NCBI GenBank assembly: GCA_035544915.1
Contig: DASZZO010000053.1
Location: forward strand, 373 to 64,372
Direction: 5' to 3'
DNA: 64,000 bases
Source of the DNA: Gemmatimonadaceae bacterium
Lineage (GTDB): Bacteria; Gemmatimonadota; Gemmatimonadetes; Gemmatimonadales; Gemmatimonadaceae
The notes beneath the pieces were generated by a model. The model made no database searches. It was given only the letters and a program-made list of their open reading frames with translations, and was not told the origin of the DNA. Position 1 is the first letter of the stretch, and each line of letters begins with the position of its first letter. A program made the position numbers and the translations under genes. Below, in pieces: positions 2,303-59,054 of this stretch.

Positions 2303-3880
2303 CTACCAGCCGGGATTCTGTGTCAGCTTCGGATTGAGATCGAGTGCCCGCTGCGGAATGGGCATGAGCTTGTATTTGTCCGGTATCGGTGCGCCGTTGA
2401 ACTTCGGAAACTTGCTGCTGTTGCTGCGCGCCTTCATCAGGTCGAATTCGATTCGCGCCTTGGCCCAGGGCCAGTTGCGCTGGCTGTCGAAATAGCCGTT
2501 CGGCCCCTCGAGCGTCAGCTCCCACCTGCGCTCAACGAAAACCGAATCGCGAAACAGGTCGTGCCCCAGTCCCGGCGTGACGTTGGGCAGCCCCGCTCGC
2601 GCACGGATCTGGTTGATGCTGGCGTATGCCTCCGCGGTGGGCCCGCTCGCCACTTCATTGGCGGCCTCGGCGATCATCAGCAGCACCTCGGCGTAACGGA
2701 GGATGATGTAATTCGGCTTTTCCGCGCCCGTTCCCGTCATCAGCGGGTCGAGGAACTTCCGCGGGAACGGCGTCTCGCTCGCGTACGGCGACGTGGCCAG
2801 GTTGTTGGGCACGTAGGTCACGATAGTCCCGTTCCTGTTCCATGACAGGAGGAACGTCGCGTCGCGCCGCTTGTCGCTGGGACTGAACGACGCGAAATAA
2901 GTGCTCTCCGCCTCGAACGAGCCATTGGTCGACGCACCCAGGTACGGTGCCGTCGCGTTCGGCGCGATGTGCGAGGAGATGCGGCCGCCGAGGCCCGGCG
3001 CACGGCTGTTCCGGATGTCGAAGATGATCTCGGAGTTGTTCTCTACCACCGTGCCGCCATAGAAATCGAAGAGCGTCATCGGGTCGGCCACCAGCGCATA
3101 GTCACCGTCGGCAACGACCTGCTTCGACATGTCGAGCGATGCCTGCCAGTCCGCAGGCGTGCCGCCGCCCGCGCCGGCGCGCTGGAGATAGACCTTGGCG
3201 AGCAGCGTCTTTGCCGCGCCGCGAGACGCCCGTCCGCGGTCGGCGCTCCCGTAGCTCTTCGACGACGGCAGCACCTTGATGGCATCCAGGAGGTCCTGCA
3301 CGATCTGCGCGTACACGTCCTGCGCCGTGTTCCGCGGCAACTGGATGCTGTCCAGCCCCTGGGTTTCCGTCAGCTTGAGCGGAACGCCCCCGTACATGCG
3401 CACCAGGTTGAAGTAGTGCGTTGCGCGCAGAAACCTGGCTTCGGCCACGATCCGGCTGCGCAGCCCGGTGTCCATCGCGATTCCCGGCACGCGCCGGATG
3501 ACGGAGTTGGCGCGGTTGATCGCATCGTACGCCGACGCCCAGACCGACTGCACGTACGCGTGAGTGACCGGAATGGTGTACACGTCCGGCTGGCTGCGTT
3601 CATTCGTGGCGCTCAGCCGCGACGTCCACATCTCCGTGGGATGCTCGACGAGCATCACGAAGTTGCGTCCGTAGTAGTTGTCGCCGCTGGTGTTGATGAA
3701 GCTCGCGTACACGCCATTGATGGCGGCCAGCGCATCGCCCGCGGTACGGTAGAAGTTCTGTGGCCCGACGAAGTCGAGCGGCGTTTCAGTCAGGTATTTC
3801 GCGTCGTTGCAACTGTTGAGCGTCAGGCATATCACGATCGCGGCGAGTGCGGCCGGCCGGAATTGTGTCGTCGTCTTCAT
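2303..3880 (-). CDS. susD: SusD/RagB-family nutrient-binding outer-membrane lipoprotein
   Basis: Internal ATG at 3880 gives the lipoprotein signal MKTTTQFRPAALAAIVICLTLNSC. Size is about 525 aa. It lies directly downstream of a SusC-type gene (susC stop 3882-3884). C-terminal ...LTQNPGW is typical of the family. Confidence 0.85.
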   Translation of the reverse strand: MKTTTQFRPAALAAIVICLTLNSCNDAKYLTETPLDFVGPQNFYRTAGDALAAINGVYASFINTSGDNYYGRNFVMLVEHPTEMWTSRLSATNERSQPDVYTIPVTHAYVQSVWASAYDAINRANSVIRRVPGIAMDTGLRSRIVAEARFLRATHYFNLVRMYGGVPLKLTETQGLDSIQLPRNTAQDVYAQIVQDLLDAIKVLPSSKSYGSADRGRASRGAAKTLLAKVYLQRAGAGGGTPADWQASLDMSKQVVADGDYALVADPMTLFDFYGGTVVENNSEIIFDIRNSRAPGLGGRISSHIAPNATAPYLGASTNGSFEAESTYFASFSPSDKRRDATFLLSWNRNGTIVTYVPNNLATSPYASETPFPRKFLDPLMTGTGAEKPNYIILRYAEVLLMIAEAANEVASGPTAEAYASINQIRARAGLPNVTPGLGHDLFRDSVFVERRWELTLEGPNGYFDSQRNWPWAKARIEFDLMKARSNSSKFPKFNGAPIPDKYKLMPIPQRALDLNPKLTQNPGW

Positions 3881-3881
3881 G

Positions 3882-6800
3882 TCAGTAGGCCAGGTTGACG
3901 CCGAAGGTGATGCTCCTGGCGAGCGGGTAGGCGCCGACATCGATGCCGCGGTTCACGTTGCCCAGCCCCAGGCTGCTGACATCGGGATTGAATCCGGTGT
4001 ATTTCGTGAGCGTCAGGAGGTTCGTGGCGGTGAGGTACACGCGTGCGCTCGAGAATCCGGAGGCCCGATACCACGACGGGTTGAGTGCGTACTCCAGCGT
4101 GATGGACCGGACCCGTACGAACGACCCGTCCTCGAGCAGGTCGCTCGTGATGTCAGACCCGATCGTGCCGGGCGTGAAGTTGATACGCGGATACTTGCCG
4201 TTCGGGTTGGTGGGCGACCACGCGTCTTCATAGCGCCGGCGCAGGATGTTCGTGGCAGGACTGCCCCCGTCAAGCCGCACGAGGTTCAGGTTGAGCAGCT
4301 TGTTCCCCTGCACGAAATCGACCGAGGACAGCAGCGTGAATGCCTTGTAGCTCAGCGTGTTCTGCCAGCCGCCGGTCCATTTGGGATTCGGGTCACCAAT
4401 GATCGTGCGGTCTTCCGGCGTGATCTGCCCGTCCGGTCCGGTGGTGATCCTGCCGTCGGGCCCTGTCCGCGGCGGTCCGGCGACATCGACCAGGATGGGG
4501 TCGCCGGCGCGCCACGTTTGTCCCGACAGCGGTTTCACCAGCGCCGTGTACGCCGCCGCCGACGCGGAGTCCCTGAAGATCCCCCTCGTCTTGTAGCCAT
4601 AGAAGACGCCGAGCGGCTGCCCCACGCGGATCAGCGTGCCGAGGAGCTTCAGATCGCTGTTCACGCTCGACGCGAAGATGTCCGTGACGCCCCCCAGGTC
4701 GAGCACCCTGTTCTTGTTCTGCGCGAAGTTGAACGTGGTGGTCCAGGCGAGGCCGCCCCAGCGCCTCGAGTTGAGCGGCACCACGTTCAGCGTGACGGCG
4801 ATCTCATACCCGTTGTTCTGCACCGAGCCGATGTTCTGCAGCGCCGAGGTGAATCCGGTTTCGAAGGGCAGGTTCACCGCGAGGAGCAGGTTGCTCGTCT
4901 TCTTCCAGTAGGCGTCGGCGGTCATGCTGAGGCGACCGCCAAACATTGCGTAATCGATCCCGACATCGCTCTGCCGGGTGGTTTCCCAGCTCAGGTTCGG
5001 ATTCCCCACCGACGCCGGGTAGTAGCCGGGCACCGTTTGTCCTCCCAGCGTGTACGGCTGCGAGTTGAGGTGCGACAGCGACTGGTACGGCTGAATGGCA
5101 GGGTTTCCCGTCTCGCCCGTCGAGAGGCGGAGCTTGAGCTGGTCGATGTTCGTCAATCGCCGCATGAACGGCTCGTCGGATACGCGCCACGCCAACGCCG
5201 CCGAGGGGAACGTCCCCCAACGATGGTCGGCCCCGAAACGCGACGACCCGTCGCGGCGCGATGTGAGCGTGAACAAGTAGCGATCGAACAGCGAGTAGTT
5301 CAGCCGCCCGATGTACGACACGAGCGTCCATCGCGTGTGTCCCGAGCTGACCTGCGGGCCGCCTGTCTGCGTACCCGCGCCGATCGACTCGAAGTTGTCG
5401 ATGTCGCTCACGAAGTTGCTGTTGCGGACGCCGCTGGTCGTTACGTCGTTGGACTGGCGGCTGTACCCTGCCAGGACGTCGATCAGGTGCGCGGACCCGA
5501 ATGAGTGTGACCAGTTGAGCGTGTTCTCGTTGAGCAGGTTCGTCGCATTCGCGGTTCCGCGAATCGCCTGCCCGTTCACCTGGCTGCCCTGGAGCGTCGT
5601 GCGCGGGTAGTACGTATCGCGCGAGCGGTTCGCGAGGTCGGCGCCCACGGTCACGCGGAGCCGTAGTCCCCCGTTGAGGATCGCTTCGGCCGAGGTGCTC
5701 CCGAGGAATCGCGTATCGCCGAGCTGGTCGCGCACGTCGGCCGCGAGCGACACCGGGTTCGGGACGTTGTTGGCGGAAAGCGGGGCTGCCACGTCGGGTT
5801 GCTGCAACGTGTAGGTCCCGTCGGCGCGGCGCACCGGAAGCGTCGGGAAATACTGGAGCGCGGCGCCGACGGCGCCGGCGCCGCCGTTGAGCGACCCGTC
5901 GGTCGGCACCGAGTTGCTGTTCACGCGGCTCGTGGTCATGCCCCCGGTCACGTGGAACCGCGTGCCGATCATCTGGTCGATGTTCCCGCGGAGCGAGGTG
6001 CGCCGGAACGCCGTCCCCAGCACGATGCCGTCCTGCTGGTACGTGCCCCCTGATAGCGCGTAGCGCGTAGCGCTGGCGCCGCTGGTGCCCCCGGTCACGC
6101 CGAGCTGCAGGCTGCGCACCGGCGCGGTACGAAAGATCTGCGCCTGCCAATCGGTTCCCTTGATCGTGTCGGTATTCGCGTACACGACGCCGGTACCGTT
6201 GGCCACCGACCACGCATTGGCGAACTGCGCGAACTCGCGAGGGCCCAGCAGGTCATATGGATGGGAGATGGTCTGCGTGCCGGTGAAGCTATTGAGCGTG
6301 AACACCGGCCGGCCGAACTTCCCTTGCCTGGTGGTGATGATCACCACGCCGTTGGCACCGCGTGCGCCATAGATCGCCGTCGCCGACGCATCCTTGAGGA
6401 TCTGGATCGATTCGATGTCATTCGGGTCGATCGCTGCGAGCGGATTGGACGGCACTGTCACCGACGGATCGCGCCCGCCGTCGCTGGGGTTCATCGCCGT
6501 GGCGTCGTTCTCGATCGGGAGGCCATCAATGACGAACAGCGGCTCGTTGTTCCCTGTCACCGACGAGCCGCCGCGAATGCGGACCGAGACGCCCCCGCCC
6601 GGCGCGGAGGATGCCTGGGTCACCTGCACCCCGGCGGCGGCGCCCTGCAGTGCCTGCTCCACCGAGATCGTCGGCACTTGCTCTGTGTTCGGGGAAACAG
6701 TGCTCACGGAGCCGGTCAGGTCGGACCGCTTCTGCGAGCCATAGCCCACCACCACCACCTGCGTGAGGGCGACGGACGTGACCTCGAGACGGAGATCCGC

Positions 6801-10796: not shown

Positions 10797-11440
10797 GTTC
10801 GCAACCGCCGTCCCGCAGCGACTGCATCGACAAACGCGCGCGCGCTCGACGTGAGACCGCCCGTCTGCCCCTGCTTGACCGACACGACATTCACCAGCGC
10901 CGAGCCCACGCTCACCGCCGCCGCACCTGCGGCGATCCACTCCGGTGCGTTCGCGATCGTCACGCCGCCCGACGGCACGAGCCGCAGAAAGGGCATCGGC
11001 GTGAGCAAGTCACGCAGGTAGCGCGAGCCGATCGCCGACGAAGGAAAGACCTTCACTAGCGCGGCGCCGGCGCGATGCGCCTCGAGAATCTCTGTCGGCG
11101 TGAAGGCGCCGGGTACGCAGATGATGTCATGGTCGCGGCAGACACCAATGACGTCGGCATCGAACGTGGGGCTCACAATGAAATGAGCGCCGGCATCGAT
11201 CGCGCTTTGCGCGCTCGCGGCGTCCAGCACGGTACCCGCGCCCACGATGCAACCGTGCTCTCCACACGCCGCGACAAGCGCGGCGATCGTCTCCAGGGCA
11301 CCCGGAGTCGTGAGCGTGATCTCAACCGCGTTCACGCCTCCGGCCGCGAGCGCCTGCGTTGCCGCCAGCAGGTCAAGGCGCTCGCCGAGCCGAACGACGG
11401 CGATGACTCCTGTCTCCAGGATGCGATCGAGAGTGGTCAT
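10793..11440 (-). CDS. eda: KDPG / 4-hydroxy-2-oxoglutarate aldolase
   Basis: GVIAVVRL..GGVNAVEITLTTPGALE..GAGTVL..GAHFIVSP..PGAFTPTEI..VKVFP over 215 aa is a classic Eda signature. Confidence 0.9.
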   Translation of the reverse strand: MTTLDRILETGVIAVVRLGERLDLLAATQALAAGGVNAVEITLTTPGALETIAALVAACGEHGCIVGAGTVLDAASAQSAIDAGAHFIVSPTFDADVIGVCRDHDIICVPGAFTPTEILEAHRAGAALVKVFPSSAIGSRYLRDLLTPMPFLRLVPSGGVTIANAPEWIAAGAAAVSVGSALVNVVSVKQGQTGGLTSSARAFVDAVAAGRRLRT

Positions 11441-12321
11441 GCGAAGGGTGGGAGGAGGAGTGCGTCCGGGTATTTCGTCAAGTCGACCGCGCCGTGGCTG
11501 CCGGGGTCCTCGAGCGGCGGATCAAACACCTCCGCGTGCCGCGCGACGATCGCGGGCCATAGCCCCGCTGCCTCGGGCAGATCCAGCGTGAACTCGGATT
11601 TGAGCGCGGAGACGAACTCTTCCGCACACTCGAGCAGGCGTTCCGTCCTGCCATCTGGTCTGGCCCAGCGCAGCACTCGGCCCCGCAGGGTGGTCACGCC
11701 CGCCGGCGTGTGGCGTTGCGCAACGAGGTTCTGCATGAACGTCGACTGCTCGGATGTCTGCAGATACGCGCACCGCGCCGCGAGCACTGACTCGTCGGCT
11801 GCGCGCAGGGTGAAGTCGAAAGTCTGCTCGCCGCCCTGCACGTGGTTGTGAAGGCGCCACCAGTCTGCATCGGCCTGCGTCAACTCGAAGGTGAAGCCGT
11901 GAGAGCTGAACTCGCCCGGCACGATGCGAATGGGGTCGATCGGCCCGTCGCCGAAGCCGACGTCGGCGAGCCAGGTGCCTTCGTCGAGATCGACTCTGAG
12001 CACGAGGTGATTGCCTATGCCCGCATCGCCCTTCCGATCACGACCTACGGCTCCTGCGCAGCGAGTGACCCGGAAACCGAGTTCCTCGAGGGCCCAGCCG
12101 AGCAGGCCGTTCATTTCATAACACCAGCCGCCCCGGCCGTGCCTGACGATTTTGTCGAAGATTGGCGCCGGGCTGAGGCCGACAGGTCGGCCAAGCTGGA
12201 CGTCGAGATTCTCGTACGGGATGGTAAGGAGGTGGGCGCGGTGGATGGCGCGGAGCGACTCGAAGGTGGGTCGCATGGGGTGGGTGAGCCCGATACGACG
12301 GAGGTAATCGCGAACAAGCAT
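11437..12321 (-). CDS. Arylamine N-acetyltransferase (NAT family)
   Basis: MLVRDYLRRIGL..LRAIHRAHLLTIPYENLDV..GRGGWCYEMNGL..NHLVLRV..WLADVGFGD, including the catalytic Cys motif GGWCYE. ATG 12321. The upstream part of the 349-aa ORF is only translated repeat DNA. The stop overlaps the eda ATG (ATGA). Confidence 0.85.
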   Translation of the reverse strand: MLVRDYLRRIGLTHPMRPTFESLRAIHRAHLLTIPYENLDVQLGRPVGLSPAPIFDKIVRHGRGGWCYEMNGLLGWALEELGFRVTRCAGAVGRDRKGDAGIGNHLVLRVDLDEGTWLADVGFGDGPIDPIRIVPGEFSSHGFTFELTQADADWWRLHNHVQGGEQTFDFTLRAADESVLAARCAYLQTSEQSTFMQNLVAQRHTPAGVTTLRGRVLRWARPDGRTERLLECAEEFVSALKSEFTLDLPEAAGLWPAIVARHAEVFDPPLEDPGSHGAVDLTKYPDALLLPPFA

Positions 12322-12340
12322 AGCGGAGAGTCTACTGCAG

Positions 12341-12460
12341 TCGAGGGTTTGGAGTCGAGGGTTTGGAGTCGAGGGTTTGGAGTCGAGGGGTTTGGAGTCG
12401 AGGGTTTGGAGTCGAGGGTTTGGAGTCGAGGGTCGAGAGTTGAGGCATGAGAGTTGAAAG
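12341..12460. repeat. Tandem array of six 14-15 bp units TCGAGGGTTTGGAG, followed by a GAGAGTTGAG-type arm
   Basis: Direct reading: units at 12341, 12355, 12369, 12383 (15 nt), 12398 and 12412, then TCGAGGGTCGAGAGTTGAGGCATGAGAGTTGAAAG. Confidence 0.9.
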
Positions 12461-12541: not shown

Positions 12542-12829
12542 ATGAACGAATCACCCATGAAGCAGCCGAGCGCCCTCTTGCCAGTGGCAATGTCCGTCGC
12601 CGCCCTGGCCCTCGTGCTCGTGCACGCCGCGATGTACGGCGTTGTCCATGAGGCCGACGAGGGGACGCCGGCCCATCTGTTCCAGATACTCATGGCCGGA
12701 CAGGTGCCGATCGTAATGTATTTCGTGGCGAAGTGGGTGCCGCGCGCCCCGAGGAAGGCTTTGGCGGTGCTTGCATTGCAAGCTGCAGCGGCGATCGCAG
12801 CGTTTACGTCGGTCTACTTTTTGACCTGA
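12542..12829 (+). CDS. Small hypothetical membrane protein (about 3 TM segments)
   Basis: 95-aa ORF with hydrophobic stretches (LLPVAMSVAALALVLV, ILMAGQVPIVMYFVA, ALAVLALQAAAAIAAF) and high GC3. No recognisable family. Confidence 0.5.
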   Translation: MNESPMKQPSALLPVAMSVAALALVLVHAAMYGVVHEADEGTPAHLFQILMAGQVPIVMYFVAKWVPRAPRKALAVLALQAAAAIAAFTSVYFLT

Positions 12830-13049
12830 GTCGAGAACAGGCGAGGGTTGAGGGTCGAGAGTCTTGAGTTGGGGGTCTGGACCGTTTGGACTACTCCCGG
12901 TCGTCTCCCGGAACCGACGCGTTCGGGAGGGTAGCAAAAACAGAGTTGAGAGTTGAGAGTTGAGAGTCGGGGGAGATCCCGCAACTCGCATCTCTGGACG
13001 CGCGACTCTCGACCCCCAACTCTCAACCCTCGACTCCAACCTCTCGACT
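12828..13049. repeat. Composite GAGAGTTGAG-type inverted-repeat element without ORF cargo
   Basis: G-rich arms at 12828-12875 and 12941-12973, a remnant motif CAACTCGCATCTC at 12982-12994, and a C-rich arm at 13005-13049 (ACTCTCGACCCCCAACTCTCAACCCTCGACTCC...). It fills the whole spacer between the stop at 12829 and the ligD ATG at 13056. Confidence 0.8.
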
Positions 13050-17938: not shown

Positions 17939-20041
17939 TTAGGGCTGCACAGCGGGCCGCATCCCCAGCGTGTGCCGGTCTATCCAATCGAACTCCCGGC
18001 GCATCTTGTCGATCTGGTGGTAGTACTCGCCGAACCCGTGCCCCTCGCGCGGATAGAACACGAGCTCCACCGTCTTGCCGCGATCCTTGAGCGCGCGGTA
18101 GAACTCCATCGGCTGGCCGATCGGCACGCGCTGGTCGTTGCCGCCGTGCATGATGAGGAGCGGCGTCGTCACCTTGTCCGCGTACGTGATGGGCGAGCGC
18201 TCCCTGTAGAACGCGAGCGTCTCCTTCGCGGGCAGCCCGTTGAAGAACGTGCCGATGTAGCCCGGAATGTCCGTCGTGCCGTACATGCTCTCCAGATCGG
18301 CCAGACCCGCACCCATCCGCGCAGCCTTGAAGCGCGTCGTCTGGCCCACCACCCATGCCGTCATGTACCCACCGTAGCTCCAGCCGGCCACGGCGAGTTT
18401 CTCCGGATCGGCCATGCCGCGCGCAATCACGGCATCCACGCCGCTCATGATGTCGCGATAGTCGCCGCCGCCCCAGTCTGGAATGTTGCCGCGCATGAAC
18501 TTCTCGCCGTAGTTCGTCGAGCCGCGCGGATTCGGGTAGAGCGTCGCCCAGCCGCGGCCTGCCCAGTACTGGCCGGGCGAGTTGGGGCTCGCCTTGAAGC
18601 CGGCGTTGCTCGCGCCGGTGGGTCCGCCGTGAGGCTCGACGAGCAACGGCACCCTCTGGCCCGGCCGGTAGCCGACGGGCTTGAGCAGGATCCCTTCCAC
18701 GGTCTGGCCATCGGTGCTCTGCCAAGTGATGACCTCGGTCTCGCCGAGCGCGATTGACGCGAGTTGGGGGTTCATGTGGCTCAGCCGCTGGGGCGAGGCG
18801 AAGCCCGGATCGGTGACATAAATGTCCGACGGTTCGAGCGATGACTGGATGGAACACGCGATGCGCGTTCCATCCCTCGTAAACGAGAGCGCGCCGATGA
18901 GCTGGTGGTTCGTGATTTTCTGGTAGCTCGCCGATGCGACATCGAAACTCCAGACACTGGACCAGGCCCGGTCGCCGGCCGTGAAGTAGATCCGCTTGCC
19001 ATCGGCCGACCAGTGCAGCGCGCCGGGTGAGTCGTCGAATTGCTTCTCGCTGTAGGCGTCCCGCGCTCTCATAGTCGCGACGTCGTACAGCACGAGGTGC
19101 GAGTTGCGCTGCTCGCGCTCCATCATGCCGTCGCCGTGCGGGCTGTGGGTCTGGGCGAGCGCGCTGAACGCAAGCGTCGAACCGTCGGGCGACCATTGCG
19201 GTGTGCTCTGCACTGCACCGAATGGCACCTGGACCGGCGAAACAGCGCCCGCGGCCAGCGCTACGATGTACGCCGCCCGCCGCTCATCGCGGATCAGCGT
19301 GGTGGGCGAGGTGACGAACGCCAGCCGCGCGCCGTCGGGCGACCACGTGGGCGCGCCGCGCACGGTGTACATCGCGGAGTGCGCGATCTCGCGCGCCTTC
19401 TTCGTGGCGAGCTCGATCACCCACAGGTGCGTGAGCCGTTCGTCGCCCTCAAAGACCTGGGGGTCGTCGTGGCGCTTCCGACGCGACTCTTCTTCGCGCG
19501 AAAGGGAATCGGTGCTCAGGAATGCAATGGAGTGTCCGTCGGGCGACCACGAGTAGCCGGTTATGCCGTCCCGGGCGCTGGTCAGCTGTTCGGCCTCGCC
19601 GCCGGCGAGTCTGAGCAGGTGAATCTGCGCTCTCGGGCCCGATGCGTCGTCACCACCCGTTGCCGCAGCACCTCGCGCGGAGATGAACGCCAGCGTCGTG
19701 CCGTCGGGCGACCACAGCGGCTGCGATTCCCCGCGCTCGCTGAATGTCAGTTGCCGGGGCCGCCCTGCCCCATCGGCCGGCACGAGCCACACATGCCCGC
19801 GCACATCGTGCCGGTCGCTCTTGGCGGTATCGCTCTTGGCCCCTGGATGCTCCCAGCCACTCACGGTGAACGCGACGAGCGTGCCGTTCGGTGAAATGGC
19901 GGGCCCGCCCACGTTTTTCATCGCCATGATATCGTCGATCGACATGGGATGCCTGGTGGTGCCCTGCGCAACGGCCGCGGCGGCGCCGAGTGCGAGTGCG
20001 GCGAAGGCGAGCGTGAGATGGGTCCGGGCGGGTTGGGTCAT
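17939..20041 (-). CDS. S9-family serine peptidase (beta-propeller + alpha/beta hydrolase)
   Basis: Signal peptide MTQPARTHLTLAFAALALGAAAAVAQG. Repeated WSPDG propeller motifs. Nucleophile elbow GWSYGGYMT, then GGNDQRVP and HGF. Confidence 0.85.
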   Translation of the reverse strand: MTQPARTHLTLAFAALALGAAAAVAQGTTRHPMSIDDIMAMKNVGGPAISPNGTLVAFTVSGWEHPGAKSDTAKSDRHDVRGHVWLVPADGAGRPRQLTFSERGESQPLWSPDGTTLAFISARGAAATGGDDASGPRAQIHLLRLAGGEAEQLTSARDGITGYSWSPDGHSIAFLSTDSLSREEESRRKRHDDPQVFEGDERLTHLWVIELATKKAREIAHSAMYTVRGAPTWSPDGARLAFVTSPTTLIRDERRAAYIVALAAGAVSPVQVPFGAVQSTPQWSPDGSTLAFSALAQTHSPHGDGMMEREQRNSHLVLYDVATMRARDAYSEKQFDDSPGALHWSADGKRIYFTAGDRAWSSVWSFDVASASYQKITNHQLIGALSFTRDGTRIACSIQSSLEPSDIYVTDPGFASPQRLSHMNPQLASIALGETEVITWQSTDGQTVEGILLKPVGYRPGQRVPLLVEPHGGPTGASNAGFKASPNSPGQYWAGRGWATLYPNPRGSTNYGEKFMRGNIPDWGGGDYRDIMSGVDAVIARGMADPEKLAVAGWSYGGYMTAWVVGQTTRFKAARMGAGLADLESMYGTTDIPGYIGTFFNGLPAKETLAFYRERSPITYADKVTTPLLIMHGGNDQRVPIGQPMEFYRALKDRGKTVELVFYPREGHGFGEYYHQIDKMRREFDWIDRHTLGMRPAVQP

Positions 20042-20172
20042 TGCTGAATCCTCGGGCGAGTCTGTAGCGCTTCCCCACGGCATTGGAGCGAGGGTGGGAG
20101 CTGCAGTGGAACTACGGATGACAGGGATATCTTACGGATGTTCGCAGATACTTGCTCGGGGGAACTCCCCAG

Positions 20173-21075
20173 TCACGGCACCAGGGTCGGCTCGTAGTTG
20201 AGGACAAACTCGATGAACTTCGATACCTCGATCATGTCGCGGCCGATGAACCGCACGGAGTGCGCGCTGGTGCGCTGGACGGTGGACAGGAAAGCGAGCA
20301 GTTCCACGGGCCGATAGTTCTTGAAGCTCAAGTCGAGCCGCACCGGCGTCGTCACGACGAAGGGACGCAGCTCGGCGCGGCGGGAGACGCCGGCTTTCAC
20401 CTTCTCGCGCACGAGCTTCTGGGCGGCCTCCGGCGTCATGCTCGCGGCCGCGTGAAAGCTGATAGCACGCTTGACCACCGCGCCCTCGATCGGGCCCAGG
20501 AGGGCCTGCGCCTCCGCGACCGCCGCGTCATCTCCCGTGATGGCCACCACGGCCACGCCAAACCGGCCCGCAATCGCCGCGTTGACTCCCGCCTCGGGCA
20601 TCGCCACGCCATTCAGTTCGACTCGCGTGAGATTCGCGCTCGACATCGTGTGCGCGCGCACGCCGGTCGGGCTCGTCGTGGACGCGTGATAGCCGATGAA
20701 GACGGCCGCTGCGAAGCTCGAGTCGATTCCCTCCATCATCATGAGTGGCCGCGGCCAGGAGCGCACCAGCGTGACATCCTCGGGCAATCGCTCGATGAGG
20801 ATGTTCTCGCCATTGCCGTGCGAGTCGCTCACCACGATCGTCGTGGCGCCGGCGTCGCGCGCGCCCTGGATGGCGGCGAGGACCTCGGCGGTCATGAAGC
20901 CCCGGAACCGTTCGTATTCGAAGCCGGTCGTACCCAGTTGGTCGCCCGAGACGACACCCGCGATCCCCTCCATGTCAGCGGAGATGTACACCTTGAGAGC
21001 ACGCTGCGCCTGGGCCGCGGAACGCGCCACGCAGAGCGTGACGAGCAGGACAACGGCATGTGAGAGGCGATTCAT
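20173..21075 (-). CDS. M55-family D-aminopeptidase (DppA-like)
   Basis: LKVYISADMEGIAGVV...VVSDSHGNG...GYHA...ITGDDAA matches the DppA pattern. The ATG at 21075 gives an N-terminal signal peptide. Confidence 0.85.
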   Translation of the reverse strand: MNRLSHAVVLLVTLCVARSAAQAQRALKVYISADMEGIAGVVSGDQLGTTGFEYERFRGFMTAEVLAAIQGARDAGATTIVVSDSHGNGENILIERLPEDVTLVRSWPRPLMMMEGIDSSFAAAVFIGYHASTTSPTGVRAHTMSSANLTRVELNGVAMPEAGVNAAIAGRFGVAVVAITGDDAAVAEAQALLGPIEGAVVKRAISFHAAASMTPEAAQKLVREKVKAGVSRRAELRPFVVTTPVRLDLSFKNYRPVELLAFLSTVQRTSAHSVRFIGRDMIEVSKFIEFVLNYEPTLVP

Positions 21076-24499: not shown

Positions 24500-25159
24500 C
24501 TACACCAGCCAACCATCCTTGAGATTGATGATCCGGTTGCCGTACTTCGCGTTCTCCTCGGAGTGCGTGACCTGCACGATGGTTGTGCCGGCGGTGTTCA
24601 AGCGCTTGAACAGCTCCATGATTTCGCGCCCCTGCGCCGAGTGCAGGTTGCCCGTCGGCTCGTCGGCAAGGAGCAGGAGCGGTTCGTGAATCAGCGCGCG
24701 CGCCACCGCCACCAGTTGCTGCTGCCCTCCGGAGAGCTGCGCAGGATACAGGTCTTTCTTGGCGACCATTCCGAAGCGGTCGAGGGTGTCGGCCACGATC
24801 GACTGGCGTTCGGTCTTCTTGATATCCCGGTAGGACAGCGGGATGTCGAGGTTCTCGGCGACGGTGAGATCGTCGAGGAGGTGATACTGCTGAAAGACGA
24901 ACCCGACATACTTCTTGTGCAACGCCACGCGCCGCTTGGTGTCGAGCTTGTGCACGGCGTTTTCGAGCAGGTCGTATTCGCCCGTCCATGCGCCGTCGAG
25001 CATGCCGAGTACGGCGAGCAGGGTGGACTTTCCGGCACCCGACGGGCCCATCACCGTCACGAACTCACCCTGCTTGATGTCGAGGGTGATGCGGCGGAGG
25101 ACAAAAGTCTGGCCGCCGGCAATTGGGTAACTCTTTTCGATGTTTCTCAGGGAAATCAT
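24500..25159 (-). CDS. ABC transporter ATP-binding protein (MacB/LolD-type)
   Basis: Walker A GPSGAGKSTLL, signature LSGGQQQ, Walker [15 protein letters not shown] 25159 directly abuts the TAA of the preceding ORF. Confidence 0.9.
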   Translation of the reverse strand: MISLRNIEKSYPIAGGQTFVLRRITLDIKQGEFVTVMGPSGAGKSTLLAVLGMLDGAWTGEYDLLENAVHKLDTKRRVALHKKYVGFVFQQYHLLDDLTVAENLDIPLSYRDIKKTERQSIVADTLDRFGMVAKKDLYPAQLSGGQQQLVAVARALIHEPLLLLADEPTGNLHSAQGREIMELFKRLNTAGTTIVQVTHSEENAKYGNRIINLKDGWLV

Positions 25160-25588
25160 TTACGGGCAGTCGAGAGTTGAGAGTCGAGAGTTGAGAGTTC
25201 TGGAGACGGGAGACTTGAGTTTTGAGATGTGAGTTGGGCGCCTTGTGCTTCGCATCAGCGCCATGAGCATCCGCTGGATCTCGTCGAGGTTCGCGGTGAC
25301 GCGGTGGAGGTCGGACGAAGGAATGAATCCGAGGTCGCCGGCAATGAGCAAATGACTCTCGAGCTCCCGTGATGAGGCGATCGCGATCTGGTACAGACGG
25401 GCCTGGTCCCCGGAGGTCTTGCGCCCCGAACTCTCCGCGATGTTTGCGGGAATCGAAACTGCCGCCCTTTGAATCTGAGATGAAAGGCCCTGAAGCTCGG
25501 CGGCCGGGAACGTCCTGGTGAGCCGGTATGCAACCACAGCGAGCGCACGCGCTCGCTGCCAGACAATCAACTCCTTGAAGTCAGCCAC
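25160..25588 (-). CDS. Four-helix-bundle protein (23S rRNA intervening-sequence protein / Avd family)
   Basis: ADFKELIVWQRARALAVVAYRLTRTFP..LSSQIQRAAVSIPANIAES.G.....ARLYQIAIAS.RELESHLLIAGDLGFI is the canonical family pattern. GTG 25588 is preferred, with TTG 25618 as the alternative. The last ~12 codons are encoded by the repeat arm. Confidence 0.85.
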   Translation of the reverse strand: MADFKELIVWQRARALAVVAYRLTRTFPAAELQGLSSQIQRAAVSIPANIAESSGRKTSGDQARLYQIAIASSRELESHLLIAGDLGFIPSSDLHRVTANLDEIQRMLMALMRSTRRPTHISKLKSPVSRTLNSRLSTLDCP

Positions 25589-25759
25589 CGCGTCACCATG
25601 AATGGAGAGGTGACTCAATCTGGCATTTGGGAAACGTACCGGCGGACCGTTGCGTCGCCAGACGTCTCAAAGGAATGCCGCTCGAAACTCTCACCTCGCA
25701 ACCCTGAACTCCCGTCCCCCCAGCTCTCACCGCCGGGCTCTCAACTCTCGTCTGCCCCC
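25160..25759 (-). mobile_element. Inverted-repeat-bracketed four-helix-bundle cassette (IVS-like / MITE-like, putative)
   Basis: The arm at 25164-25219 and the arm at 25703-25758 are near reverse complements; 19 of the outermost 20 nt match. The element exactly fills the spacer between the ADOP stop (25759-61) and the ATPase ATG (25159). Confidence 0.5.
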
Positions 25760-28161
25760 TATTCCGTTCTCAATGCGACCACCGGATCCACCCGCGCCGC
25801 CCGGCGCGCGGGCAGATAGCAGGCGACCAGGGCGACAACCGCCAGCATCAATGGGACCGCGATGAACGTGAGTGGGTCGGTGGCAGGCACGCCGAACAGC
25901 TGCTTCCGCAAAAGTTGTCCGGCGCCCCAGGACCCGAAGAGACCGATGACGGTCGCAACGGCGATCACGCGGGCACCGCCGCCAAGCAGCAGTCGCACCA
26001 CCTGGACATGCCGCGCGCCGAGCGCCATGCGGATTCCGACTTCTCGCGTGCGCTGCAGCAGGACAAACGACATCACGCCGTACACGCCCACCAGGGCGAG
26101 CACCAGGGCGAGCAGCGCGAATGCCCCCGTGAGAACCAGCGTGAAGCGCGGCAGCGCTGTCTGTCGGCGCAGGAAGGCGGTCATGGGCTGCACGCGCCAC
26201 ACGGGCTGGTCGCGGTCCACCGACCAGATCGCTGCGCGCACGGATTTCGCCAGGGTGGCCGGATCGCGGTCCGTGCGCACGACGAAGCTGTTGAACGCCC
26301 CCGCGGCCTGCGATGTCGGCTGGTAGAGCTGCGCGCTTGGCGGATCGCCGAGCGCCTGTTGCGTGATGGTCCCTACGACGCCCACCACGGTCACCCAATC
26401 CGGCTGCGGCGCTCCCAACAGCTTGAGCCGCTTGCCGAGCCCCGATTTTCCCGGCCACTCGCGACGTACGAACTCCTCGCTGACGATGGCCACGTGCCGT
26501 GTCTCAGGCTTGTCAGTCGCGTTGAAGTCGCGCCCTTCGAGAAAGCGTATACGGAGCGCGGAGAAAAATCCGTCGGATACGGTGTTCTGCAGCGCCGACG
26601 AGGGCACCACAGCCGGCGCCGCGCCCTCGCGTTCGTAGGGAACGACGCCAAAGTTGCCGCTCAGCGGCACGGAGCGCACCAGCGCGGCCGCCCGCACGCC
26701 CGGCACGCGGCGAACCTCGTCCAGTGCGCGAGTGAGAAACTGGGTGATCTCCTCTGGCGTCTGATACTTCGATGCCGGCAGCCTGAACTCGCCGCTCAGC
26801 AGGTTGCTCGTGTCGAAACCGGGGTCGACGTGCTGGAGCGCCGCCAGACTCCGCGCGAGCAGACCCGCTCCGACAAGAAGGACCACACAGACCGCGAGCT
26901 GCGCGGTCATCAGTACGGTGCGGACATCCACCCGGCGTCGCGCGCGCCCGTCGCCGGAACGCATATTGAGCGCCTCCTTGAGGTCGGGCCGCGCTGCAGA
27001 CAGCGCCGGCACGAGGCCGGCCACGAGTCCCGCGCCAATCGTCACGGCCAGCGCGAACAGCAGCACTCGCATATCGAGCGTGACCGCGCCGAAGGCACCG
27101 AGCCCGCCCGGGACCATCGCAACGAGCGTGTCGAGCGACCAGCCGGCCAGCACGAGCCCTGCCACGCAGCCGAGCGCGGCGAGCACGAGGCTCTCAGTCA
27201 GGAGCTGACGAATGAGCCGCGAGCGGCCGGCCCCGAGTGCGGCGCGCAGTGAAAGTTCACGACGGCGGCCGGTTGCGCGCACGAGCTGGAGATTCGTGAG
27301 GTTGGCGCACGCGATCAGGAGCACGATGCCCACCGCGGCGAAAATAGTCAGCAGCGGATCGCGGTTTCCGGCGACAGTGTCCCTGAGGGATACGACGGTC
27401 GCGCCGATGCCCGCGTTCGCGGCGGGATACTCCGTCGCGAGCTCGCCGGCGATGCCCGAAAGATCGCGCCGGGCCTCCGCGAGCGACACGCCCGGCTTGA
27501 GGCGGCCCCAGGCCCATACATTCTTCGCGTTGCGGACGTACCATGACGCACCCGGCGCCGTGGGAAGTGGCAACCAGGCATCCACCGGCGCGAGCGGATC
27601 GCGAAACTCCTTCACGGTCACGCCGATCACCTGGCGCGGCCGGCCGTCGAGCACCAGTGTCCGTCCCACGATGCTCGAGTCGCCGCCGAACCGCGTGGTC
27701 CACGCAGCCCACGAGAGCACAGTCACGTCAGGCGCCGTCCCCTGTGCGGTCTCCTCAGGCCGGAAGAGCCGGCCGAGCGCGGCGCGGGCGCCGAGAACCG
27801 AGAGTGTGCTCGCCTCGACGTAGGCCCCCGACACCCGGTCAGGCGCGTCGCGTCCGGTGAGGCTCACGCTCTGCTGCCGCTCGACTCCGATGCTGGCGAA
27901 CGTCCGGCTGCGGGCGCGAAAATCCTCGATGTCGGGGATCGAGAGCAATCGTCGCTCGGCCCCGCGCTCCGCCCAGAGCATCACCAGGCGGTCGGCCTCC
28001 GGGTACGGGAGCGGACGCAGGAGCACGGCGTCGATCACGCTGAAGATCGCGGTGTTCGCTCCGATGCCAAGCGCAAGCGTGAGCACGGCGGCAAGCGTGA
28101 AGCCGGGGCTCCGGCGCAGGGAACGAAGGGAGAAGCGGAGATCCCTCAGGAAGTGGTCCAA
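25759..28161 (-). CDS. ADOP-family ABC permease (duplicated MacB/FtsX-like domains)
   Basis: The N-terminus [59 protein letters not shown] is the ADOP signature. 800 aa with two MacB_PCD+FtsX modules. Apparent TTG start. Confidence 0.9.
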
Positions 28162-28168
28162 AGGAGAG

Positions 28169-28366
28169 CCGTCGAGAGTTTGGAGGCGAGAGTTGGGAGT
28201 TGGGGGATGAGAGTCGAGAGTTGAGAGTTGAGAGTTCCAACTCGCAGTCCAAAGTCCCCGGAGTCCGGTCCGGCGTCGAGAGGCCTCGCGATCAGCAACA
28301 CCTGAACTCTCAACCCTCGACTCTCGACCCCCAAACTCTCAACGCCCGACCCTCAACTCTCGACGG
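28169..28366. repeat. Cargo-less GAGAGTTGAG-type inverted-repeat element (two ~66-nt arms, ~64-nt loop)
   Basis: The termini CCGTCGAGAGTT (28169-28180) and AACTCTCGACGG (28355-28366) are perfect complements, and the arms are about 85% complementary by eye. The loop begins with the remnant CAACTCGCA (28238-28246). Confidence 0.85.
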
Positions 28367-28368
28367 CC

Positions 28369-29082
28369 TTAGTGCGCCCCTGCGCCTGCCATCGCCTGCT
28401 CATCCACGACCCGCCCGTCGAACAGATTGATGCTGCGGTCGGCGTGGAGCGCGTAACGGGGATCGTGCGTCACCATGCAGATCGTGGCGCCGTTCCGGTT
28501 GAGCTCGCGCAGCAGTTCCATCACCGACTCGCCGTTGACGGAGTCGAGGTTTCCCGTGGGCTCGTCGGCGAGGAGGATTGCGGGATCGCCCGCCACCGCC
28601 CGGGCGACGGCCACGCGCTGTTGCTGGCCGCCGGAGAGCTGCGCGGGATAGTGCTTGGCGCGGTGCGACATCCCGACGCGCTCGAGCGCGGCGTGCACCC
28701 GCTCCTTGCGCTCGGTCGCGCTCATGCCGCGATAGGTGAGCGGCAGCTCCACGTTCTCATAGACGGTGAGATCGCCGATCAGGTTGAATGCCTGGAAGAT
28801 GAATCCGATCTGGCGGTTTCTCACGCGCGCACGATCGGCGGCGTCGAGGCCGGCGACGGGGCGGCCGTCGAGGAGATACTCACCATCGCTCGCCGTGTCG
28901 AGCAAGCCGAGGATCGAGAGCAATGTGGTCTTGCCGCAGCCCGACGGTCCGGAAATGGCGACATACTCGCCCTGCTTGATCTCGAGGTGCACGTCCGCAA
29001 GCGCGTGCGTCTCGACCTCGTCCGTGAGAAAGACCTTTTTGATGCCCTGCAAGCGGATGAGCGGCTCGCCGTTTGTCGCCAT
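28369..29082 (-). CDS. ABC transporter ATP-binding protein (MacB-type)
   Basis: Walker [13 protein letters not shown], signature [14 protein letters not shown], Walker [13 protein letters not shown]. Confidence 0.9.
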
Positions 29083-31535: not shown

Positions 31536-31609
31536 GCGCGAGTAGCTCAGCTGGATAGAGCGTCGGCCTCCGGAGCCGAAGGTCGTGGGTTCGAATCCCG
31601 CCTCGCGCA
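31536..31609 (+). tRNA. tRNA-Arg (anticodon CCG)
   Basis: Manual cloverleaf: acceptor GCGCGAG/CTCGCGC, D arm GCTC-AGCTGGATA-GAGC, anticodon arm TCGGC-CTCCGGA-GCCGA, T arm GTGGG-TTCGAAT-CCCGC, discriminator A. CCA is not encoded. Confidence 0.9.
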
Positions 31610-32896: not shown

Positions 32897-32902
32897 AACA
32901 GC

Positions 32903-32920
32903 CGAGGGTCGAGAGTTGAG
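32903..32920. repeat. Solo GAGGGTCGAGAGTTGAG motif copy
   Basis: CGAGGGTCGAGAGTTGAG lies 7 nt after the rho stop. The same word occurs in the arms at 12426-12445 and 12848-12862. Confidence 0.7.
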
Positions 32921-32951
32921 CGGCGGGAGCCAGGAGGCACGGGGGAGACTG

Positions 32952-58288: not shown

Positions 58289-58634
58289 ACGCGGGTCGTT
58301 GCAGCCCGTGACAATATCGATGTGACAGGAGTGCGGAGCCGGGAGTATCAAGTAGGCGGCAAGCGGGCCGGCGACGTGCGAATCGCGGACCGCCGGATTC
58401 GTTCAGAGCTGTTTGAAAATCCAGCGGTGCACCGGCGATCGCTTTCGCGAGCAGGCGAACGCTCGATGATGCAGTGGTGAGCGACTTCGAGGGCGCGCGA
58501 AACCGCAACCACGCAGCGATGAACGGGCTGGGGAGTGGCCGAAAGCTCTTCAACGCAACGAGGAACGGCCGCCAGGTGCGCAAACGTTCCTCGATGCAGC
58601 GGTGAACGGCCTCAAGGGCACGTGCAATGGCTAT

Positions 58635-59054
58635 CGAGGCACGTGCAGTCGCTACCGAGGCACATGAAGTGGGCGGCGAGGCATGCGAAGTGCGCGGGAA
58701 GGCACGAGCAATGAACGCCGAGGCACGCGAAACGGACGGTCAGGTTCGGGCAACGAACGGCGAGGCCCACCAACCAGACACCGCGGTCCGCGAAGCGGCC
58801 ACGAAGGCCCGCGAAGTGGCCACGAAGGCTCGCGAAGCAAGGGCCAAGGCACGCGAAACGAACGGCCAGGCGCGTGCACCGGGTAGCGAGGCTCTCTTAA
58901 CGAGTACCGAGGCTGGCGAAGTCGGCACGACGGCTCACGCAATGAGCACCGAGGCTCACGGAATGAGCACCGAGACAACAGCAACGCGCCCCGAGGCACC
59001 CGAAACGAACACCGAGGCAACAGCAACGCGCACGAGGCACCCGGAACGGTCCTG
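58635..59054. repeat. 20 x 21-bp strictly phased degenerate tandem repeat (consensus about CGAGGCNCGCGAANNGNNCAC)
   Basis: Hand-parsed units start at 58635 + 21n for n = 0..19 with no indel. CGAGGC or a one-mismatch variant heads most units. The array ends exactly at the aminotransferase stop (59055). Confidence 0.85.

Follow-up and report, generated by a model that had tools for sequence, protein, structure and literature searches.

What is a small gene of the S23p/intervening-sequence (IVS) protein family doing between two ABC transporter genes, and why is it enclosed by long inverted repeats that touch the coding sequences on either side? We addressed this question for an element in a contig of a Gemmatimonadaceae bacterium (DASZZO010000053.1, assembly GCA_035544915.1), of which the whole stretch of 64,000 nt that was analysed is called the window here. 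The four-helix-bundle (4HB) proteins of this family have been known since 1993, with crystal structures since 2006. The element is a cassette made of a tandem-heptamer array, a 4HB (S23p/IVP-family) gene and the reverse-complement array, co-oriented with the surrounding genes and fitted precisely between the stop codon of one gene and the start codon of the following one, and as a feature it is real and far from chance. Its parts and immediate neighbours, in the order of transcription, are:

25759-28161, minus strand: upstream neighbour, an ADOP-family duplicated permease (TIGR03434, E 6e-272)
25686-25758, minus strand: 5′ arm in gene orientation, G-rich degenerate tandem heptads GAGAGTT/GAGAGCY, starting 1 nt past the permease stop
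25589-25685, minus strand: leader from the 5′ arm to the GTG start, forming the 5′ part of the loop, defined from sequence and alignable to orthologous leaders
25160-25588, minus strand: 4HB gene of 142 amino acids with a GTG start and a TAA stop (PF05635, TIGR02436, identity to the deposited protein P0001)
25164-25235, minus strand: 3′ arm, C-rich tandem heptads AACTCTC/GACTCTC inside the tail of the open reading frame (ORF), ending 4 nt before the ATPase ATG
24500-25159, minus strand: downstream neighbour, the second ABC ATPase of the operon (ATPase2), with its ATG at 25157-25159

A preliminary description of the region had placed near reverse-complementary arms of about 55 nt around the ORF. 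Its coordinates all agree with ours and so does the near complementarity, whereas the arms proved longer, a repeat search giving 72 nt for each (25164-25235 and 25686-25757; 74% complementary and 450 nt apart), and the local complementarity between the upstream flank and the reverse-complemented downstream flank lies 21 standard deviations above shuffled sequences. That description had not noticed that the arms are tandem 7-nt repeats (period 7 in Tandem Repeats Finder, TRF) of GAGAGTT/GAGAGTC units, with AGTCGAGAGTTGAG present twice. Both boundaries it gave are confirmed: the 5′ arm begins, at its outer end, one base away from the permease stop TAG (25759-25761), and the 4HB TAA (25160-25162) directly abuts the ATPase2 ATG to give TAAATG. 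The frame is open over 25160-25618 on the minus strand with the GTG at 25588 as the likely true start, and the 3′ arm supplies its last ~25 codons, so the C-terminal tail is repeat-encoded as had been proposed. Folding of the minus-strand RNA of 25150-25770, a check suggested at the outset, predicts a structure of -276.9 kcal/mol (z -5.1) in which pairing of the arms runs from ~25757 to ~25163; the 5′ arm is supported by the inverted repeat, by pairing with the 3′ arm in this minimum free energy (MFE) fold and by covariation among related cassettes (below). Rfam returned no family at the cassette locus, even at E ≤ 1, and scans for sigma-70 promoters and intrinsic terminators returned no match at the cassette. 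The 3′ arm was ruled out as an intrinsic terminator because no U-tract follows it. No rRNA was detected in the window by Rfam, whose sole match there is one tRNA gene at 31536-31609 on the plus strand.

A stem with a 4HB ORF in its loop is the architecture of ORF-bearing 23S rRNA IVSs, and the proposal that the same architecture is present here in an operon mRNA stands. The IVS of Coxiella burnetii has a 28-bp terminal stem that is cleaved by RNase III in vitro, with ends mapped by rapid amplification of cDNA ends, and it carries three tandem GACAGAT heptamers upstream of the S23p start, with the RNase III site at the first repeat and a heptamer copy number that varies among strains (PMC4990558). 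The classic IVS therefore has the same type of arm as the cassette. The explanation we favour, and regard as probable though well short of settled, is that of an IVS-type modular cassette in an operon mRNA, with a stem that would be processed by RNase III, representing a protein-coding member of a family of heptad hairpins.

The same arrangement recurs throughout the protein family. We assembled 80 non-redundant 4HB loci from Gemmatimonadota, cyanobacteria, a planctomycete and metagenomes, with viral contigs and plasmids tested separately, and found complementary flanks at z of at least 5 by direct alignment in 68 of them, and 13/18 viral-contig loci passed as well; a metagenome scan with the family alignment contributed 80 further loci with 39-54% identity. 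A strict TRF criterion (period 7, at least 2.5 copies on both sides, consensus units complementary at 6 or more of 7 positions) was passed by 36/69 loci and by 2/4102 pseudo-genes placed in 4HB-free DNA, a roughly 1000-fold enrichment of heptad arms around 4HB genes. The density of period-7 arrays is 2.16 per kb in the vicinity of 4HB genes and 0.19 per kb elsewhere. Four distant 4HB genes that were picked for phylogenetic distance and inspected all show the design:

Cyanobacterium aponinum: GGTTTCA x4 upstream, ACCTGAY x4 downstream
Moorena: GGTTTTA-type x14 upstream, CCTAAAA x7 downstream
Planctomycete: GTGGTCA x4 upstream, CTGACCA x3 downstream
Unassigned metagenomic contig: CGAGTCT upstream, ACTCGTG downstream

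The heptad units fit a loose logo, A-G-S-N-N-T-Y, with 4.59 bits compared with 2.62±0.18 for composition-matched random heptamers, and the arrays peak at 4.0-4.7 units (~30 nt, usually ~4.4 heptads) with occasional expansions to 10-30 units. Where upstream genes are co-directional, their stops gather close to the outer 5′ arm end, at distances up to ~10 nt (39/100 long-ORF stops at -10 to +9 nt), and at 37/68 loci the 4HB ORF ends within the 3′ arm or past it. Four cyanobacterial plasmid loci carry heptad arrays of a single family both at the 4HB gene and at neighbouring junctions. We hold the architecture and its generality with high confidence.

Two of the plasmids place the 4HB gene between cas6 and cas4 of a type I-D CRISPR-Cas system (L200, Anabaena sp. 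90 pANA02, 11039-11881; L201, a Pseudanabaena plasmid, 19764-20463), with very long heptad arrays of up to 20 units of a 14-mer in the flanks, and on another plasmid it stands between parA and parB. Zhang and Ye have described genes annotated 23S_rRNA_IVP wedged inside cas operons (PMC3936711).

The protein of the window is a secure member of this family. It passes the curated cut-offs of both PF05635 (E 1.7e-32, 112.2 bits, cut-off 33.8) and TIGR02436 (E 1.1e-32, 112.5 bits, cut-off 24), and the GTG-start product of 142 amino acids is 100% identical to P0001, a protein deposited for a Gemmatimonadaceae metagenome-assembled genome. An AlphaFold2 model (pLDDT 90.1) has four helices, and its nearest structures in Foldseek are XCC0516 (2gsc; rmsd 0.8, 41% identity; phmmer E 3e-19) and BT_0352 (2rld), followed by Avd and a ribonucleoprotein of diversity-generating retroelements (DGRs). 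The motif Q-x2-R-x3-S-I-P-A-N-I-A-E-x3-R followed by S-x2-E-x3-H is present (Q38, R41, S45, N49, E52, R56, S72, E75, H79); in 91 sequences R41, S45, N49, A51, S72 and E75 are invariant and W10, Y21, P28, Q38, E52 and R56 near-invariant, and the conserved residues map to a single face of helices 2 and 3. We considered a HEPN-like R-x4-H site (RELESH) and rejected it because its arginine varies across the family (S/K/A/R). Values of dN/dS among clade-A orthologues (0.11-0.21) indicate purifying selection, and judged from sequence evolution the 4HB protein is functional. The structure entries 2gsc, 2rld, 4dwl and 8ub7 contain five protein chains each, and by analogy the window protein is probably a pentamer.

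Does the cassette belong to its operon or is it an insertion? Close homologues (62-88% identity) occupy the same position immediately upstream of ATPase2, within the order HlyD - ATPase1 - (ADOP) - 4HB - ATPase2 - sigma-54 response regulator - histidine kinase, and this position is syntenic in about six lineages. An ordinary operon gene, in which the 4HB protein serves as a dedicated accessory of the ABC exporter or two-component system and the repeats are incidental stabiliser hairpins, would fit this synteny together with the purifying selection and a likely translational coupling (below). A scan for ATPase2 across Gemmatimonadota and Acidobacteriota, with one genome per species, yielded however a 4HB gene in only 4/80 orthologous operons, three of them at the same junction (L012, L013, L016) and one (L024) on the opposite strand between ATPase2 and the regulator, whereas L014, L015, L017 and ~70 further operons lack it. 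The same protein family with the same arms is moreover found in contexts as unrelated as cas6-cas4, parA-parB, accB-XCC0516, gntP-moeA and rRNA, and together with the enrichment of arms over pseudo-genes this leaves the accessory-gene explanation strongly disfavoured and in our estimate very improbable.

Polymorphism at orthologous junctions, which the preliminary description had set as a test of a cassette, exists in three states: the junction is occupied, cleanly empty or taken by an empty hairpin. Operons that are equally close differ in this respect. In L014 and L015 it measures 23-24 nt and holds neither repeat nor 4HB gene; L017 has an empty GGGGATT/AATCCCC hairpin at exactly the cassette junction and L024 an empty hairpin of its own heptad (TAGGGCC/GGCCCCA). 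L017 contains three such GGGGATT/AATCCCC hairpins (3345-3412, 5906-5968 and 6675-6743) at three successive junctions of one ABC operon. Gemmatimonadota and Acidobacteriota (L012-L091) share the operon type itself, HlyD-ATPase-(ADOP)n-ATPase-(ADOP)n-regulator-kinase, always with two ATPase genes and with ADOP permease genes that vary widely in position and in number, from 0 to 4 in the fetched stretches.

Replacement is best seen by comparing L012 and L013. In the host tree of ATPase2, regulator and kinase, ((window,(L004,(L002,L003))),(L012,L013)), followed by L015 and then L024, these two form a pair (clade B) next to the clade of the window (clade A). Their flanking proteins are 98% identical (dS 0.29 for ATPase2 and 0.17 for the regulator), whereas their 4HB proteins are 68% identical with a dN of 0.242 and saturated dS. 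Ahead of the ATPase1 stop, and once more beyond the ATPase2 start, 33-39 of every 40 nucleotides are identical; the segment between these points, arms included (5459-5998 vs 1997-2566), has ~60% identity, and throughout both arms all units differ at two fixed positions, GGAAGCC vs GGAAGAT. Since identity drops exactly at the outer arm ends, the whole arm-ORF-arm unit was exchanged or replaced. Clade A and clade B 4HB proteins are 50-57% identical, no closer to each other than either is to unrelated metagenomic 4HB proteins. On these comparisons the unit has a history separate from that of its flanks, being present, absent or replaced at the same junction, and we place moderate confidence in its modular mobility. 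A loaded cassette might move by recombining with an empty hairpin whose arms are the same.

How does the operon accommodate the insertion? In 5/7 orthologous cassettes the 4HB stop abuts or overlaps the ATPase2 start:

Window and L002: TAAATG, 4HB stop directly before the ATPase2 start
L001: TAGATG, 4HB stop directly before the ATPase2 start
L004 and L012: ATGA, stop overlapping start
L003 and L013: 4HB stop located ahead of the 3′ arm or early within it

L015, an operon without the interruption, has the stop of the upstream gene overlapping the start of ATPase2. The suggestion that the element uncouples the permease from the ATPase is therefore doubtful at the level of translation, as abutment or overlap in most cassettes argues for coupling, and ATPase2 is likely translated by coupling to the 4HB ORF. 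Ribosomes translating this ORF would read through and melt the 3′ arm and end on the ATPase2 start codon, which would preserve the translational coupling of the uninterrupted ancestral junction. Reading through the arm and delivery of ribosomes to the ATPase2 start would together explain why the tail is repeat-encoded.

Is the repeat confined to the cassette? With up to 2 mismatches allowed, the 13-mer GAGAGTTGAGAGT has 24 hits in the window vs 0.97 expected, and these are concentrated in intergenic gaps (12339-12460, 12836-12975, 12997-13049, 28173-28236, 28296-28361 and 32897-32924). The corresponding structures are:

28162-28369, minus strand: ORF-less ('empty') heptad hairpin in the ATPase1-permease junction of the cassette operon, with a fold of -124.7 kcal/mol and z -8.0
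12941-13049, plus strand: another empty hairpin belonging to this heptad family, GAGAGTT x3.7 with an ACTCTCA-type array
12339-12460, plus strand: long G-rich 7/14-nt array of the related unit AGTCGAGGGTTTGG (x6.7 at 12339-12433), with no adjacent inverted partner
32897-32924, plus strand: short solo array of the same heptad family, unit CGAGGGTCGAGAGTTGAG, intergenic and just upstream of a RuvX/YqgF-like ORF

The arms of the hairpin at 28162-28369 are colinear homologues of the cassette arms (~76% identical over 62-70 nt), again with the G-rich arm first in the direction of transcription. Because loaded and empty hairpins share homologous arms, the window contains a single heptad-hairpin family with one loaded member and two or more empty ones. 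The arms are thus part of the cassette, as originally described, without being private to it, and they belong to a presumably genome-wide family. We considered whether the 28162-28369 hairpin is a deletion derivative of the cassette and set this aside, as its loop has no significant similarity to the ORF or leader and only the arms are homologous. No second 4HB copy was found in the window by tblastn.

Other repeats of the window deserve mention. The AGTCGAGGGTTTGG array at 12339-12433 and a second G-rich array at 12836-12877 stand in direct orientation around a 95-amino-acid hydrophobic ORF (12542-12829, plus strand) for which there is no Pfam hit, and which may be another cargo in a heptad-bounded slot. 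At 58617-59048, two minus-strand ORFs are separated by a stretch of ~470 nt filled with ~20 degenerate copies of a 21-nt unit (core GAGGCAC; 21 = 3 x 7).

A gene bracketed by an inverted repeat that is also dispersed in intergenic regions, as found in the window, recalls the REPtrons, in which a RAYT transposase gene is reportedly flanked by inverted repetitive extragenic palindromic (REP) sequences (as said to be described by Nunvar in 2010 and by Bertels & Rainey in 2011). An account on these lines, overlapping with the one we favour, would make the heptad hairpins primary and the 4HB protein a trans-acting factor that binds, maintains or spreads them, with RNA processing secondary. Empty hairpins with the heptad of a nearby loaded copy occur in the window (28162-28369 and 12941-13049), at L003 and L024 and on the plasmids L199-L201, and the three GGGGATT hairpins of L017 share a single operon. 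In Xanthomonas campestris there are 186 GGGAATC arrays, mostly of four units and 70 of them in convergent pairs, according to Rehm et al. (PMC4692102), and in their supplementary table a four-unit array lies 6 nt from bccP (XCC0517) and overlaps the start of XCC0516 (PMC4692102). XCC0516, the 4HB gene that carries this array, is the crystallised family member. Closely related 4HB proteins also carry similar heptads (r 0.44, 0/500 permutations), and the five chains in the XCC0516, BT_0352 and Avd crystal forms may be set beside the modal 4-5 heptads of an array. The correlation between protein and heptad could however reflect plain co-inheritance, and we set it aside as proof of specific recognition, confounded as it is by shared descent. 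To our knowledge no nucleic-acid binding or catalytic activity has been described for members outside DGRs, and neither L012 nor L013 has same-heptad arrays within 9-12 kb. We regard a REPtron-like primacy of the hairpins as a serious though on the whole unlikely alternative to the IVS-type cassette.

Are the arms maintained as a stem? All orthologous cassettes have long inverted heptad arms (43-72 nt) with a unit that differs by locus:

Window and L001: GAGAGTY
L004: GAGGGTC and GACGTGA
L012: GGAAGCC (28 nt, 100% complementary)
L013: GATGGAA
L024: GGGGCYT

In MFE folds the 5′ arm pairs with the 3′ arm in 11/11 cassettes, with 27-61 pairs. An alignment of the five clade-A cassettes gives a terminal stem of 57 pairs in which 85.5% of cells are paired, compared with 79.9±1.1% after shuffling (0/500) and, for a slid partner, 28-45%; changes on both sides occur in 14 pairs (8/500 shuffles), and the covariation score is 0.274 vs 0.166 (0/500). 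These five sequences are supportive, not conclusive, of arms that keep pairing through compensatory change.

Several observations weigh against a freely moving cassette maintained as an RNA stem. Twelve of the 80 loci lack significant arms, and on the plasmid L201 the arrays adjoining the 4HB gene are direct, with the inverted partner further upstream. Within clade A the 4HB gene has diverged along with its host operon (dS of 0.46 for 4HB vs 0.32 for ATPase2 between the window and L001; 0.79 vs 0.75 between L002 and L003), so that the cassette, on the evidence of these rates, is not recently mobile there and has long been inherited vertically at this junction. The preliminary idea of a cassette spreading between junctions therefore fits the junction polymorphism, the replacement and the unrelated junctions elsewhere, and does not extend to recent movement at this site. 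No recombinase or transposase is encoded in the cassette that would supply a means of movement. The case for RNase III cleavage at this locus is one of homology to the Coxiella element. Finally, mismatches in the arms have no G:U bias, with 65 sense wobbles, 73 antisense wobbles and 160 transversions, and we accordingly dropped wobble asymmetry (65 vs 73) as a sign of selection on RNA. Complementarity could therefore be kept at the level of DNA, for example by template-switch correction, and the concerted unit change between L012 and L013 together with the missing G:U excess fits DNA-level homogenisation by slippage and template switching between arms better than a purely RNA-level view.

The arms might accordingly be hairpin or cruciform sites for recombination, replication slippage or a host recombinase, with the RNA stem a by-product. 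Besides the wobble counts and the concerted change of all units in both arms, the variable copy number with its large expansions and the replacement breakpoints exactly at the arm ends speak for such a DNA-level element. It does not readily account for the G-rich arm being consistently 5′ of the ORF (G 856, C 454 on the sense strand of the 5′ arm family-wide) or for neighbouring genes being co-oriented in 37 of the decidable cases and opposite in 11, which points to a strand-specific constraint on the transcript, and the homologous IVS stem is demonstrably an RNA substrate (PMC4990558). We consider it unlikely that the element acts through DNA only.

We return to the IVS-type cassette as the preferred explanation. 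The transcript would form an imperfect stem of ~57 bp, a double-stranded substrate for RNase III as in the homologous Coxiella IVS, and the operon mRNA would then be processed at the cassette junction. The cassette would be the protein-coding member of a lineage-specific family of heptad hairpins that is also present in other junctions, and the putatively pentamer-forming 4HB protein would most likely bind or control the heptad repeats. In RNase III processing at this locus and in the role of the protein we have low to moderate confidence. A bolder version, which we think improbable and put forward as speculation, has a pentameric 4HB ring reading ~4-5 heptads (AGS-NN-TY) of the 5′ arm and thereby deciding whether all hairpins with the same heptad in the genome fold and are cut; TRAP, which binds spaced triplets, would be the analogue. 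If this were true, 4HB proteins and heptad hairpins would constitute an unrecognised phylum-spanning repeat/regulator system with a REPtron-like layout and post-transcriptional action, and it would account at once for three puzzles: the ORFs found in rRNA IVSs, the short tandemly repeated repetitive (STRR) heptamers of cyanobacteria together with the GGGAATC arrays of Xanthomonas, and the sizeable families of 4HB paralogues.

Whatever the mechanism, the evidence says that S23p/IVS proteins, tandem heptamer repeats and operon-junction hairpins are parts of one module, of which the rRNA IVS is one special insertion site. The three features have so far been described separately and without known function, and supporting data already stood in the supplement of one paper (PMC4692102). 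Our literature search found no publication linking the 4HB family to heptamer repeats beyond the Coxiella description, one elsewhere not being excluded, and the family-wide rule of a 4HB gene between complementary heptad arrays thus appears not to have been described before. This rule is a more important result than the single cassette and is directly testable. For annotation, C-terminal tails encoded by the repeat and the apparent link of 23S_rRNA_IVP genes with cas operons should probably be read as artefacts that a mobile module leaves on insertion and not as functional partnerships.

Compared with a REPtron, the cassette likewise has one protein gene with a short repeat inverted on its two sides, and hairpins of this repeat that lack an ORF are scattered through intergenic regions of the same genome. 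The protein is however a four-helix bundle of ~120 amino acids with PF05635 as its sole Pfam hit and not an HUH/Y1 (IS200/IS605-like) transposase, and the arms are tandem 7-nt arrays where REPs are single palindromes. Neisseria Correia elements, which are cut by RNase III, and the REP sequences and bacterial interspersed mosaic elements of E. coli, which are transcribed hairpin repeats in mRNAs, resemble it as inverted repeats in operon junctions that fold in the transcript and can change the stability of flanking cistrons, but carry no ORF and are not built of tandem heptads. The DGR accessory protein Avd shares the fold and superfamily (Foldseek TM 0.65-0.70 to 4dwl and 8ub7, the latter a DGR ribonucleoprotein) at only 11-13% identity. 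The neighbours of the window 4HB gene are the ADOP permease, ABC ATPases, HlyD, a sigma-54 response regulator and a histidine kinase, and no reverse transcriptase or template and variable repeats were found next to it, the rest of the window not having been scanned for reverse transcriptase.

Tandem heptamer families share with the arms the 7-nt unit, a modal ~4 units, an intergenic position, frequent convergent inverted pairs and transcription. Cyanobacterial STRR heptamers were reportedly described by Mazel et al. in 1990, and the unit of locus L163 is the STRR1 unit CCCCAGT read on the other strand. The unit of the empty L017 hairpin, GGGGATT, equals the Nostoc PCC 7120 unit among the GGGGAYT arrays reported by Rehm et al. 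in 2015, who state the function of the repeats as unknown (PMC4692102), and TAACTGA tandem heptamers are described in Beggiatoaceae (PMC4679880). In the passages considered, both papers treat the repeats as stand-alone simple sequence repeats or G-quadruplex motifs and make no link to 4HB genes (PMC4692102, PMC4679880). Unlike the G-rich heptamers of the 2015 paper, whose units have G-tracts of at least three and can form G-quadruplexes, the GAGAGTT/GAGAGTC units of the window have no GGG run, and G-quadruplex formation is therefore not the common denominator.

The closest relatives are the ORF-bearing 23S rRNA IVSs of Leptospira and Coxiella, in which the same protein family is encoded in the loop, the stem is formed by terminal inverted repeats, the ORF is in sense with the host transcript and, in Coxiella, the 5′ stem region holds tandem heptamers. 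The host of the window cassette is in contrast an operon mRNA between ABC genes and not helix 9, 25 or 45 of 23S rRNA; its ORF is intact and under purifying selection, whereas that of Coxiella is decaying and probably untranslated; and, unlike the rRNA elements, it reads through its own 3′ arm to end on the start codon of the next gene.

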